Shown here: in pieces, positions 4,805-56,285 of the stretch
Layout of the letters: each line of letters begins with the position of its first letter
How positions within the stretch are numbered: position 1 is the stretch's first letter
DNA from: Octopus vulgaris
Taxonomy: Eukaryota
Direction: 5' to 3'
DNA length: 64,000 nucleotides
Assembly: GCA_951406725.2 (NCBI GenBank)
Contig: OX597837.1
Coordinates: 20,832,001 to 20,896,000, forward strand
Translations under genes and position numbers: made by a program
Notes under the pieces: generated by a model
Databases searched by the model: none
What the model saw: only the letters and a program-made list of their open reading frames with translations
What the model was told of the DNA's origin: nothing

Positions 4805-5115
4805 TAAGAGAGTGGTCACTATGTGGCTCACTCTAGCACTAGTAAATCCAAAAGGTTTCAACCACAAAAAATACATGTTTCCCATGAAAGTCCATGTTTC
4901 CCATGTATTTTTTGTATTTTTTGTGGTTGAAACCTTTTGGATTTACTAGTGCTAGAGTGAGCCACATAGTGACCACTCTCTTATATTTATTTTTATAAAA
5001 TATTATAATATGTTATAAAATATTATAATAATCCAGGTTTCTCGGGGCACTGGGCCACTTGGTGTGGAATAGGTATACTATTAAATTAGTATCTAATTCT
5101 CTCACCCATTATTAA

Positions 5116-5120: not shown

Positions 5121-5195
<75 letters not shown>

Positions 5196-5204
5196 GTATA
5201 TCAG

Positions 5205-5395
5205 ACGCCATGATAGATCGTTAGCTACTACACGCATTTTTCTCTCTCCTTGTTTTTTTTCTGTGTATCTTTCTGTGGAAGAGCGTAGGCTCGAAACGTA
5301 AAAGACTTTTTCTATTCCTGAGCGCTATACTAATATACATTTGTTTGTTTGTACACCACCTGCCTTCGTCTTTTGTTTATTTTCGTAAACTTTCC

Positions 5396-5399
<4 letters not shown>
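5205..5399 (+). mobile_element. ~200-bp hammerhead-bearing element (family HH1), 3' end fused to (TA)n
   Basis: TCTTT-CTGTGGA-A-GAGC(GTAG)GCTC-GAAACGT-A-AAAGA at 5268-5305; shared tail CTTCGTCTTTTGTT...; near-identical copy on minus strand at 56091-56285. Confidence 0.8.
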
Positions 5400-5474
<75 letters not shown>

Positions 5475-5705: not shown

Positions 5706-5765
5706 TTGTGCCTGACGAGGTAGATACATTCCTCTAAGAAGCCTACGAAACTTTAACTTGCATGG
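5706..5765 (+). ncRNA. Degenerate type I hammerhead motif
   Basis: TTGTGC-CTGACGA-G-GTAG...CTAC-GAAAC...CTT-GCATGG; stems I and II pair, stem III has a mismatch. Confidence 0.45.
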
Positions 5766-7926: not shown

Positions 7927-8376
<450 letters not shown>

Positions 8377-17832: not shown

Positions 17833-18177
17833 TACAGTTCTATAACTAAGAGATGAGGAATTATGTACATTGTTTACATTTGACGGATATTTGTCCTCAT
17901 CTTGTTTGTTGTTAACAAGTTTTAGTGGATATACCTTCCAACCTTTTTTCAGGTGTCTTGGGGAAATTTCGAATCTGGGTTCTCATTCCTAAAGTTAGTA
18001 GCCCGCGCTCTTAACCACTACGCCGTATGCCCACGGGCATATGGTGCAGCGGTTATCCCAGGTTCGAAATTTCCCCAAGACACCTGATGAAGGCTGGAGG
18101 ATATATCAGCCGAAACGTTGTGTTAACAACAAACAAGATGAGGACAAATATCCGTCAAATGTAAATGATGTAAATAA
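17833..18177. mobile_element. tRNA-headed hammerhead element as an inverted dimer, inserted in a family B SINE
   Basis: Arms 17859-17979 / 18057-18179; TTTACGTTCTGA duplicated at 17821-17832 and 18178-18189. Confidence 0.8.
18079..18124 (+). ncRNA. Type I minimal hammerhead ribozyme motif
   Basis: GACAC-CTGATGA-A-GGCTG(GAGGATATAT)CAGCC-GAAACGT-T-GTGTT; palindromic ACGT stem III, GUU site. Confidence 0.75.
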
Positions 18178-25989: not shown

Positions 25990-26222
25990 CTTTTTGAACT
26001 TGCTGAACTGTTATACTCTGTACGTTAATACTTTGTCCCTCTCTCTCTCTTCTTTTTTACACGTTTTGTTTTTCATTCTCTCTCTGTTTATTCCCCCTTA
26101 TTCTTTTCTGTTGAAGAGCGTAGGCGCGAAACGTAAAAGACTTTTCCATTTTACCAGAGCGTCAAACTAATACACTTGTTGTTCCTAGACCTGCCTTTGC
26201 CTTTTGTTTTTCTATAAATTTC

Positions 26223-36249: not shown

Positions 36250-36472
36250 AAGCAATGACACACGTGCTTTTCGCGGACTATTCTTTCCCTTCTCTCCAGA
36301 CTTTTCCCTCTTTCGTCTTCTTGACGAAGAGCCATGCTCGAAACGTCACACCCCGTCTTTTTTTCCCATCTTAAACTTTCTCCAGCATCAATCTGATACA
36401 TTCACTGTGTTCATCTTTTGACTTTTGTTATTTTTCTTTTTTTCTTTTTATTTTTTATTTTTCCGGCAAATT

Positions 36473-36916: not shown

Positions 36917-38144
36917 CATATACATATGAGTGCATATACACACTGCTATACATATAAAAATATAAATATACATAATAATGCAAATAAATAATATAAATTA
37001 GTAAACATATATATGTTCCACACTCAATGTTTCAGTTCTTCAACTTAATATTGTGATAATAAACATACACATATTAGTACCTAGATGCAAATATACATAG
37101 TCAATAGTACATTATATTATTTCCTACTAATTTCAAAAGTGTCATTAAAGTTAGCATCATTATCGTTGTCAATACCATTAATGCTACCATCATTATCATT
37201 CATAATATTATTAATAACGCTTACATTAGGATCCAAAGTGGCACATATGTATGTCCGGGTTCCATTTAGTAATTTTCCTTATGACATAAATACACTATTG
37301 GATTTGAATTTAAATTATCATTGTCTACCTTATGGTTGGTCCGTTGAGAGCTGCCCCCACACCGCACAAGAAAAACATACACATCCCCATTCAACCCTAA
37401 ACCCACACACACATGCACACACACATGCACACACACATGCACACACACATGAATAAACCCCGACACATCGCTACACATTCACTAGATTGCGGAGTGCATG
37501 TCTGTCATCACATGGCTTATAGACAAATCAGTACAGGCCGCAGTGTCTATACACTAACACACACACTCATACGCACATCCGCATATACTCATAGATATTA
37601 ATACAATCTCATATACTGTATCAGTGAACATTCGCACACACATATATATACATATTTAAATATATGTCTACGCACTCATACGTACAAATAAAACCTATAC
37701 TTATATCCACATATGTATAAGAAAAACATACATCCGCACGTCCACACACGAACATACCTATACGTACAAAAACATACATTCGTACACATACACATTTTCA
37801 CACACATCGCCACCTCAACCCACATCTACCAAATCATAAATTAAAAATATATGTCTGCCCATCCAAGAACGTATATATACATACACAAAAAGTAAACAGA
37901 AGTTACTATTAACTTAGATATAAGTTCATTAATTATAAATTAAATTAAATCAATTATAAGTTAGTAAGTGCCAAATAAACAAAAATACATAATTAAATAA
38001 ATAAATATATAATATATATATATATATATATATCCATGTATAGATAAATAGATAAATAAAATGGAATACAAATTAAGAAGAGCACAAAGATAAACCTAAT
38101 ATAGTAGTATGTATGTATGTAGGTATGTATGTATGTATGTATGT

Positions 38145-39771: not shown

Positions 39772-40454
39772 CATACATACACATATACATAGGCACACAC
39801 TCACGTACACGCACGCACGTAGAAAACATATTTACATATATATAAACATAAATACACATGCATATTAGAACACGCATACTGATCCGTTGAGATATATCTA
39901 TGAATGAGTACACACACACACGCATGTGTGTATGTGTGTATGTATGTACGTGAGAGGGCCCGGAAGATTATGTCTACTTTGGGTTCTAATGGAGTAATTT
40001 CCACTGCCGCCAATTCTTTCATTCTTCACTCGTCAACACCTCCCCGGCAACCATCTCGCCACCACCACCACCACCGCCGCCACCGCCACCACCACCAACA
40101 TCGTTACATCTGTTCAAATTATGATGGAAGCCAGAGACGAAAATGATTGCACATGCAACAATCAGTTACTTAAACTAATAAATAAAAGAGGAATTAGTCC
40201 AGTCCTGTTGACCAGCCAATAGTAACTGGCCGTGTTGCACTGAAATTGGTGATCGACCAAGTGTATAATTGAGTAGAGCTTTCTATCTAAAAGTACGAGG
40301 TTCGTATCCGACCAGCATTCAAATCACCTCGGACAGCATTCTCTGTGGCTACTTTCTTGCTTCTTTCGACATGAATCATATCGGATGATTCATTAATTCG
40401 TCGATAATTGGTTGATTTTATTAGTTGTTTGTTTGATTGATTATTTATTTGATT

Positions 40455-41875
40455 GTTTGTTTGTTTGTTTGTTTGGTTGGTTGGTTGGTCAGTCGGTCGG
40501 TCGGTCGGTCGGTTGGTTGGTTGGTTGGTTGGTTGGTTGGCTTGTTGGTTGGTTGGTTGGCTTGTTGGTTGGTTGGTTGGTTGGTTGGTTGGTTGGTTGG
40601 TTGGTTGGTCGGTTGGTTGGTTGGTCGGTTGGTTGGTTGGCTTGTTGGTTGGTTGGTTGGTTGGTTGGTTGGTTGGTTGGTTGGTCGGTTGGTTGGTTGG
40701 TCGGTTGGTTGGTTGGCTTGTTGGTTGGTTGGTTGGTTGGCTTGTTGGTTGGTTGGTTGGTTGGCTTGTTGGTTGGTTGGTTGGTTGGTTGGTTGGTTGG
40801 TCGGTTGGTTGGTTGGTCGGTTGGTTGGTTGGTTGGCTTGTTGGTTGGTTGGTTGGTTGGTTGGTTGGTTGGTTGGCTTGTTGGTTGGTTGGTTGGTTGG
40901 TTGGTTGGTTGGTTGGTTGGTCGGTTGGTTGGTTGGTCGGTCGGTTGGTTGGTTGGTCGGTTGGTTGGTTGGTTGGCTTGTTGGTTGGTTGGTTGGTTGG
41001 TTGATTGGTTGGTTGGTTGGTCGGTTGGTTGGTTGGTTGGTTGGTTGGTTGGTTGGTTGGTTGGTTGGTTGGTTGGCTTGTTGGTTGGTTGGTTGGTTGG
41101 TTGGTTGGTTGGTTGGTTGGTTGGTGGTTGGTTGGTTGGTTGGTTGGTTGGTTGGTTGGTTGGCTTGTTGGTTGGTTGGTTGGTTGGTTGGTTGGTTGGC
41201 TTGTTGGTTGGTTGGTTGGTTGGTTGGTTGGTTGGTTGGTTGGTTGGTTGGCTTGTTGGTTGGTTGGTTGGTTGGTTGGTTGGTTGGTTGGTTGGTTGGT
41301 CGGTTGGTTGGTTGGTCGGTCGGTTGGTTGGTTGGTCGGTTGGTTGGTTCGTTGGCTTGTTGGTTGGTTGGTTGGTTGGTTGGTTGGTTGGTTGGTCGGT
41401 TGGTTGGTTGGTCGGTTGGTTGGTTGGTTGGCTTGTTGGTTGGTTGGTTGGTTGGTTGGTTGGTTGGTTGGTTGGTTGGTTGGTTGGTTGGTTGGTTGGT
41501 TGGTTGGTTGGTTGGTTGGTTGGTTGGTTGGTTGGTTGGTCGGTCGGTTGGTTGGTCGGTCGGTTGGTTGGTTGGTTGGCTTGTTGGTTGGTTGGTTGGT
41601 TGGTTGGTTGGTTGGTTGGTTGGTCGGTTGGTTGGTTGGTCGGTTGGTTGGTTGGTTGGCTTGTTGGTTGGTTGGTTGGTTGGTTGGTTGGTTGGTTGGT
41701 GGTTGGTTGGTTGGTTGGTTGGTTGGTTGGTTGGTTGGTCGGTTGGTTGGTCGGTCGGTCGGTTGGTTGGTTGGTCGGTTGGTTGGTCAGTCGGTCGGTC
41801 GGTCGGTCGGTCGGTCGGTTGGTTGGTTGGTTGGTTGGTTGGTTGGTTGGTTGGTTGGTTGGTTGGTTGGTTGGC
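40455..41875. repeat. ~1.4-kb (GGTT)n array with GGTC and GGCTTGTT variants
   Basis: Direct reading. Confidence 0.98.
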
Positions 41876-47944: not shown

Positions 47945-48096
47945 AGAGAGATTTCTTCCCTTTCTCTCTTAATCCTTTCTGTCGAAGAGCTTAGGCTCGA
48001 AACATCAAAAAGTTTCTCATTCTTTCCGTCTGTTAAAACTAATACACTTGCTTGTTGTTTCTTCACCTATCTTCGTCTTTTGTTTTCTGTAAATTT
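47945..48096 (+). mobile_element. Family HH1 hammerhead element, decayed
   Basis: CTGTCGA-A-GAGC(TTAG)GCTC-GAAACATC at 47979-48006 with shared tail. Confidence 0.7.
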
Positions 48097-51509: not shown

Positions 51510-51925
51510 AGGGAGAATTCACAAAAAAACAAAAGACGAATACAGGTGGTGTAGACAACAAGCAGATGTATTAGTTTAATGCTCGGGACGAGAAAAAGAC
51601 TTTAACGTTTCGAGCCTGCGCTCTTCCACAGAAAGAAGCAAACAGTTAAAAAAAAATTTTTTTAGAAAGTGCAAAAAACTTAAGAAAATTTCAAAAGGTT
51701 CAAAAGCTTCGAACATCGTGATGTATTGGAGCGATTTCTCATCAACAGAAGAGTCCAGTGTAATCCATGGGCAGGAGAGGTGCAGCTGAAAGTCCAGGTA
51801 GAATAGTCCAGTGTAGAAGGTGTAAAAGTTCGTTGGGTAATGAGGAGACTGGATCAACTGGTACGACCACGTGAGCGTGTAATATATGGACGAAGACAGG
51901 TGATGTAGACAACAAGCAGATGTAT
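51510..51925 (-). mobile_element. HH1 element with upstream unique sequence and a partial direct repeat of its tail
   Basis: Minus CTTT-CTGTGGA-A-GAGC(GCAG)GCTC-GAAACGT-T-AAAG at 51600-51635; GTAGACAACAAGCAGATGTAT occurs at ~51551 and ~51905. Confidence 0.75.
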
Positions 51926-55329: not shown

Positions 55330-55543
55330 AGTTTCTTCTCTCTCTCGCTCTGAACGCGTGTTTCGTTAGCGATTTTCTTTCTCCGTCTTCCCTTTTTAGG
55401 ACTTTTTCTATATTTCTGATGAAGAGCTTCGCTCGAAACCTGAATTCCTCTTTCTTTTCTTTCCTTTCCTGAGCGTCCAATAACACAGTACTTGTTCCAC
55501 GTCCTCACGTTAATGTGTTTTCTTGCTTGTTCATGTTTGGATT

Positions 55544-56094: not shown

Positions 56095-56285
56095 AAAGTT
56101 TACGAAAATAAACAAAAGACGAAGGCAGGTGGTGTACAAACAAACAGATGTATTAGTATAGCGCTCAGGAATAGAAAAAGTCTTTTACGTTTCGAGCCTA
56201 CGCTCTTCTACAGAAAGGTACACAGAAAAAACAAGAAGAGAAACAAGGAGAGAAAAAAAATGTGTGTAATAGCTAACGAGATTTA
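56091..56285 (-). mobile_element. Family HH1 hammerhead element
   Basis: Minus CTTT-CTGTAGA-A-GAGC(GTAG)GCTC-GAAACGT-A-AAAG at ~56182-56217; 3' end abuts (TA)n. Confidence 0.8.

Follow-up and report, generated by a model that had tools for sequence, protein, structure and literature searches.

The closest described relatives of the motif analysed here are the minimal hammerhead ribozymes (min-HHRs) of metazoan Penelope-like elements (Cervera and de la Peña 2014, PMC4209133), located in the terminal repeats of retroelements that encode a reverse transcriptase (RT) and a GIY-YIG endonuclease. As far as the available parts of that paper describe them, they combine a short helix I, an extra base between positions 9 and 10.1, a G10.1-C11.1 pair, H17 and a palindromic 15.2-16.2 stretch without a helix III, and they occur as thousands of single truncated copies; the sole core variant mentioned in its text is U3-A8. 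The role of the hammerhead in Penelope-like elements is debated, the proposals being RNA processing, parasitism or dispensability (PMC8557442, PMC11167929). PAc, the hammerhead of the Poseidon element of Anolis, cleaves only with the ORF protein, and its main template is the uncut RNA (PMC11167929). Natural changes in the uridine turn have been recorded: A6C retains low activity (PMC3088659, PMC7151607), as in the phage Bcep176 ribozyme, which performs poorly in Mg and better in Mn, and U4C lowers activity yet leaves enough in a viroid (PMC3088659). A6C brought one ribozyme down to ~4e-6 per min at 0.3 mM Mg (PMC7151607), and in a deep mutational scan every single substitution within the CUGA turn gave a poorly active ribozyme (PMC9901934).

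The octopus motif shares all of the listed features with the min-HHRs, including the terminal-repeat location, but differs in having U6 instead of A6 and, in a sister lineage, C4; its 4-bp helix II lies at the short end of the published range. With PAc it shares a position upstream of the RT start in the terminal repeat, and PAc provides a model for protein-assisted cleavage and for read-through of uncut RNA. The PAc ORF starts inside the ribozyme, whereas the octopus ORF starts several hundred nucleotides downstream and carries a Neptune-type linker; cleavage of PAc has been assayed, whereas the present motif is known from sequence alone. Like Bcep176 it has a natural change at position 6, which in the phage is C6 in a single sequence and here is U6, fixed in ~22,000 animal retroelement copies. 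Published min-HHRs already have this architecture, extra base and dimer logic; the present analysis adds to them the U6 core, for which no earlier report was found in the literature searched, together with the whole element, copy counts and the sister lineage with U4C.

Hammerhead-like copies in the octopus window

The window, a 64,000-nt stretch of an Octopus vulgaris contig, contains the seven copies that a first-pass annotation had described, and a pattern search with sequence checks recovered the same cores. Five belong to the U6 lineage: CTGTGGA with loop GTAG at 5273 (+), CTGTTGA with GTAG at 26108..26135 (+, an old subfamily), CTGTCGA with TTAG at 47979..48006 (+, an old C17 subfamily), CTGTGGA with GCAG at 51604..51631 (−) and CTGTAGA with GTAG at 56186..56213 (−). 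The other two are of the A6 lineage: TTGACGA with loop CAT at 36321..36347 (+), which is decayed, and CTGATGA with loop TTC at 55416..55442 (+), from a G17 side subfamily. The annotated U6 in five of seven copies, the variable loop II, the extra A before helix II in all seven and the helix II mismatch at 26.1 kb, where the 3′ strand of the 26108 copy reads GCGC, were all found again. The annotation had missed G16.2A in the 47979 copy and ACCT with G17 in the 55416 copy, and its treatment of the seven as one family was not borne out: both A6 copies have 3-nt loops and fall in a lineage distinct from that of the five U6 copies.

In the copy at 5273 (+), the 5′ strand of helix I, TCTTT (5268..5272), pairs with the 3′ strand AAAGA (5301..5305). 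The core box C3 U4 G5 U6 G7 G8 A9 and the extra A occupy 5273..5280, with U6 at 5276 and N7 at 5277, and are followed by helix II (GAGC/GCTC) with its GTAG loop at 5281..5292. G12 A13 A14, the palindromic ACGT and A17 at 5293..5300 fit the min-HHR consensus GAAAN-palindrome-NUH. Through the ACGT palindrome a helix III is possible in a dimer only, and the predicted cut site lies between 5300 and 5301. The surrounding 5200..5398 (+) is what remains of a Penelope-like terminal repeat after 5′ truncation; it matches each of the two terminal repeats of the full-length copy L114 at ~81% identity and is flanked by (TA)n tracts at 5121-5201 and 5399-5470. Element copies in the window are 200-nt fragments between (TA)n tracts that lack an ORF, and tblastn with two element ORFs gave no match anywhere in the window. 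The 5200..5398 copy is a truncated fossil, the broken-off end of a Penelope-type element, and since it lacks an ORF it is probably inert.

Three other features of the window were noted. A near-perfect 160-nt palindrome at 4814-4974 adjoins the 5273 copy; it scores 88.7 bits against Rfam MIR2863, under the cut-off of 94, and is probably an inverted repeat or MITE-like element. A degenerate hammerhead-like string, CTGACGAG...GTAG/CTAC...GAAAC, is found at 5712-5765 (+), ~440 nt downstream of the 5273 copy. A (TTGG)n array 1.4 kb long, strongly skewed between the strands, occupies 40449-41874.

The host element and its two young lineages

Longer copies were traced upstream of the motif through a C/T-rich stretch into a GIY-YIG endonuclease and an RT. 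In 20 long copies the unit measures ~4.5 kb and its reading frame, counted from the probable start, stays open for as many as ~1,070 residues; CUGUUGA stands downstream of the ORF in all 20 and in 11 of them also upstream of it. RT and a GIY-YIG domain at the C-terminal end are encoded on a single ORF, their motifs being visible in the translation; in Pfam searches RVT_1 scored above the cut-off (E=4.6e-8) and GIY-YIG below it (E=0.006). A CX4CXXC linker, CSRPRCRTC, lies between the two domains. The copies have the partial-tandem terminal repeats and the (TA)n insertion bias of Penelope-like elements, and the tail end, judged by tail position, would place the putative RT start ~95 nt downstream of the motif. 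EN+ elements of Neptune type have a CX2-5CXXC linker between RT and endonuclease (PMC8557442), and the available description of the Neptune and Nematis clades shares with the octopus element the RT, the CX4CXXC linker, the C-terminal GIY-YIG with two internal cysteines, the (TA)n targets, the partial tandems and the inverted tails. A tandem truncated copy has one inverted element tail at its 5′ junction (L050:5955-5984), as described for Penelope-like elements. A protein search of the genome returned 23,649 candidates, 119 of which were scored, many with equal score; 19 U6-lineage ORFs have a median nucleotide identity of 99.7% over 1,779 nt. The host is a young and probably active Penelope-like element of Neptune type, the type being assigned from features described in PMC8557442. 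A GIY-YIG fragment upstream of the A6 copy in L194 was considered as a sister ORF and rejected, as it belongs to another element and is separated by (TA)n.

A pattern of helix II and GAAACGT matches exactly at 37,321 places in the 2.8-Gb genome and its reversed control at none, so the motif is not a chance occurrence. With the same helix II anchor, position 6 is U in 22,039 copies, A in 15,960 and C or G in 862; a 4-nt loop occurs in all of the first 100 U6 matches listed, and only 623 A6 copies have one. Two sets of copies were chosen without the core pattern. One, retrieved by flanks only, comprises 93 copies (taken from the first 100 of 9,150 matches listed, all on contig C1), with U at position 6 in 90 and C in three; the other comprises 30 ORF-anchored loci, 27 of which had the motif within range, every one with U6. 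Contigs from four runs with four organism labels, consulted for expression, cover the motif and have no other letter listed at position 6, RNA ends and strand not being visible in contigs. A flank-only tree of 235 copies sets the U6 lineage (140 copies, support 0.99) apart from the A6 lineages. U6 is fixed through several successive subfamilies up to the youngest full-length copies and is therefore not decay; both the genome-wide and the ORF-anchored counts bear out the annotation's view of a non-canonical hammerhead family, the motif being hammerhead-like, of type I, with U6 as the fixed core base of many copies.

The sister lineage (L231-L250, e.g., L234:1424-1451, +) has a unit of ~6.2 kb with a long CA-rich 3′ region, and its hammerhead combines U4C, C17 and, in the youngest copies, a U-U mismatch in helix I. 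The box reads CCGACGA, with A6 but C4, in 19 of 20 regions. This lineage is also young (99.7% median identity) and is 71% identical to the U6 lineage in amino acids and 41% (99/241) at four-fold sites. Among the first 100 A6 matches listed, ~64 carry U4C, as counted by eye.

A small old group (L133, L134, L135, L140 and L005) has canonical CUGAUGA with a GTAG loop and is nested among old U6 copies; it may represent the ancestral state or a reversion, the flank-only trees being weakly supported within lineages. U6 in unrelated families amounted to 91 matches, with no second large U6 family among them: about half are of the long-helix family found at 18084 in the window, whose U6 versions are probably single changes, and the rest are decayed or old relatives. 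Seven loci (L371, L374, L375, L383, L384, L387 and L388) carry an isolated CUGUUGA motif whose helix II is paired but differs in sequence and whose flanks are rich in pyrimidines; homology to the tail was not detectable in these seven, and they may be older U6 relatives. We also considered that U6 had been selected to lock the monomer as a rod hairpin (U6-A15.1, G5-C15.2). The hairpin is predicted, but the idea was rejected because A6 copies have other predicted hairpins that are at least as stable, so that a rod hairpin is not specific to U6.

Position 7 had been described as varying freely. All four bases do occur (U 41, A 28, C 19 and G 12 in the first 100 U6 matches listed, counted by eye), but the base is tied to subfamily and does not vary from copy to copy: flank type CC goes with A7 in 35 of 36 copies, TC with G7 in 23 of 30 and AT with C7 in 13 of 17 (chi-square p ~1e-21), and the youngest copies have U7. 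N7 is thus free on the master lineage and is a subfamily marker. Position 17 switches among A, C and U; G17 accounts for 512 of 37,321 matches (1.4%) and includes one small G17 subfamily, in the A6 lineage. About nine of its copies, that at 55416 in the window included, share diagnostic flanks, which indicates modest amplification, the G17 loci having been retrieved because of G17 itself. Members of this subfamily (L314, L318, L319, L321, L322, L327, L329 and L183) combine canonical CUGAUGA with G17, and their helix I is A-U at pair 2.4-1.4.

Conservation of the fold and the question of cleavage

Comparison of core and flanks had been suggested as a check, and at non-CpG sites the core is the more conserved. 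In the 93 flank-anchored copies, 14 of 830 non-CpG core cells differ, against 439 of 6,295 in the 3′ flank, a flank figure raised by substructure and by the alignment of low-complexity sequence. Of the motif's CpG cells, 54 of 498 are changed, those of the catalytic G12 among them, which is A in 9 of the 93 copies; after insertion, copies decay neutrally and the motif is free of selection. Clustering on flanks alone placed 322 of 339 copies in 14 clusters, 13 of which have the same commonest string at 20 positions (C3, G5, G8, A9, the extra A, helix II and G12-U16.1), the exception being five copies with CpG decay. Flanks of the youngest U6 clusters are 19-35% divergent from those of older ones, and flanks of different lineages ~40-50%. 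Because many copies were found with the core pattern, part of this invariance is ascertainment; in the flank-anchored copies the C3-G8 pair, G5, A9, G12 A13 A14 and A15.1-U16.1 are each present in at least 84 of 93. The extra base between 9 and 10.1 and the G10.1-C11.1 pair are present, and 15.2-16.2 reads ACGT in most copies, with no monomer helix III.

Changes fall at N7, H17, loop II and paired sites in the helices, where the hammerhead model expects them. In helix I, 85.5% of cells are paired, and pair 2.4-1.4 is C-G in 21 and G-C in 13 of 50 distinct rows, the U6 lineage having C-G, the sister lineage G-C and a side subfamily A-U, a covariation that amounts to few independent events. Helix II of old U6 copies has compensatory changes to GGGC/GCCC in four and GGAC/GTCC in one, which argues that structure rather than sequence was kept; the tails of these five score 43-65 bits on the old-U6 profile, and shuffles at most 0.5. 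The pattern of substitutions indicates that on the replicating lineage the motif is under selection.

If cut RNA were the common template, copies should begin at the cut. Copy 5′ ends have no clear peak at the predicted site among junctions judged by eye (first 100 of 254 listed), which argues against efficient cleavage; of the junctions listed, 18 fall on the TA that straddles the cut, 17 on the loop II TA and 10 one base downstream of the cut. Likewise, none of 19 long copies begins at the predicted cut: 10 read through the upstream site and nine begin 139-1,511 nt downstream of the cut (with one repeat unit subtracted where needed). Internal RT initiation has been shown for another Penelope element (PMC11167929). 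Amplification of the G17 subfamily, although G17 is outside the H17 consensus, also argues against efficient cleavage, and the U-U mismatch in the youngest sister copies counts against a ribozyme reading.

On balance we lean slightly towards an attenuated and likely protein-assisted hammerhead, a slow predicted ribozyme. A partial-tandem transcript would carry two motifs whose ACGU palindromes could pair to form helix III in the dimer. Reverse transcription, starting downstream of the motif, would cross the predicted cut site, so that fast cleavage would destroy the template and slow cleavage might be tolerated or even favoured. The uridine turn would be weakened by A6U, and in the sister lineage by U4C, with G8 and G12 left as they are, and cleavage would take place in the dimer only, probably only with the element's own protein helping. 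A more specific and rather doubtful proposal is that the two young lineages dismantled the uridine turn in different ways (A6U and U4C) and kept the catalytic guanosines, the ribozyme now being a ribonucleoprotein enzyme in which the element protein would replace lost RNA contacts and time cleavage to the transposition cycle.

Retention of the fold as a recognition or positioning signal for protein, with catalysis lost and U6 and C4 as the first drift in the part needed for chemistry alone, is possible but clearly less probable than slow cleavage. The altered uridine turn of both young lineages fits a loss of catalysis too, as do the lack of copies ending at the predicted cut, the amplification of a G17 subfamily with helix I still paired and the sequence-invariant helix II of all young subfamilies; in another Penelope element cleavage was dispensable for insertion in vitro, according to the available account (PMC11167929). 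Against a pure recognition signal, the positions that serve chemistry (G5, G8, G12, A13, A14 and the C3-G8 pair) are unchanged in every amplified cluster, G17 remains rare, and helix II of old U6 copies was changed by compensatory pairs. That the motif is a dead relic carried neutrally, with U6 having hitch-hiked on a successful master element, accords with the G12A and CpG decay of inserted copies but is very unlikely, given 20 positions constant across U6 clusters with 19-35% flank divergence, sets chosen without the core included, and compensatory changes in two helices. Least probable is a U6 so fully compensated that the ribozyme matches the speed of other minimal hammerheads from Penelope elements: U6 has lasted through many subfamilies to the youngest copies, but position-6 substitutions were damaging in the published assays, as far as these are described (PMC7151607, PMC3088659, PMC9901934), and the small CUGAUGA group among old U6 copies may be a weakly supported reversion.

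Intact, near-identical elements thus carry a core whose activity, going by mutagenesis, is predicted to be crippled, and their sister lineage has another change in the core. The U6, U4C, canonical and G17 groups form a natural series for asking whether selection acts on cleavage.

Detection of the variant and motifs of other families

The suggestion that standard searches could miss the variant holds for the published descriptor ^cuganga, which would; the Rfam miss has another cause than U6. No Rfam hammerhead family was among the best 150 of 303 matches in the window, and targeted Rfam scans gave no hammerhead at the 5273 copy or at the canonical 18084 copy. Since Rfam also misses a canonical CUGAUGA minimal hammerhead, the miss reflects the minimal architecture. 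The first box reads CUGUNGA instead of CUGANGA in 22,039 copies, which makes the motif a variant of the min-HHR rather than a plain member. About 85% of superfamily copies fail ^cuganga (57% through U6, the rest extrapolated from C4 among the first 100 A6 matches listed), so descriptor searches undercount the superfamily. The extra A, singled out by the first-pass annotation, is present in all seven copies but is a conserved feature already published for Penelope minimal hammerheads (PMC4209133).

U6 is absent from the rows of the PMC4209133 supplementary alignment that were examined. Term look-ups in PMC11014351 and in a 2026 retrozyme preprint gave no natural A6U hammerhead, and the main text of an octopus repeat-annotation paper mentions neither hammerheads nor ribozymes. 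We found no report in the literature of a natural A6U hammerhead or a Penelope-like CUGUNGA core, which Lünse et al. 2017 and some supplements could contain. The former reportedly lists very many Penelope-associated hammerhead variants.

The canonical copy in the window, at 18079-18122 (+), belongs to another family and has CUGAUGA, a long helix II (GGCTG/CAGCC) and helix I ACAC/GTGT. Another Penelope-like family (~30% protein identity), seen as a single copy, is represented at ~7950-8010 (−) of L194, and its hammerhead-like motif has C4 (CCGAAGA) and a palindromic GTAC loop III.
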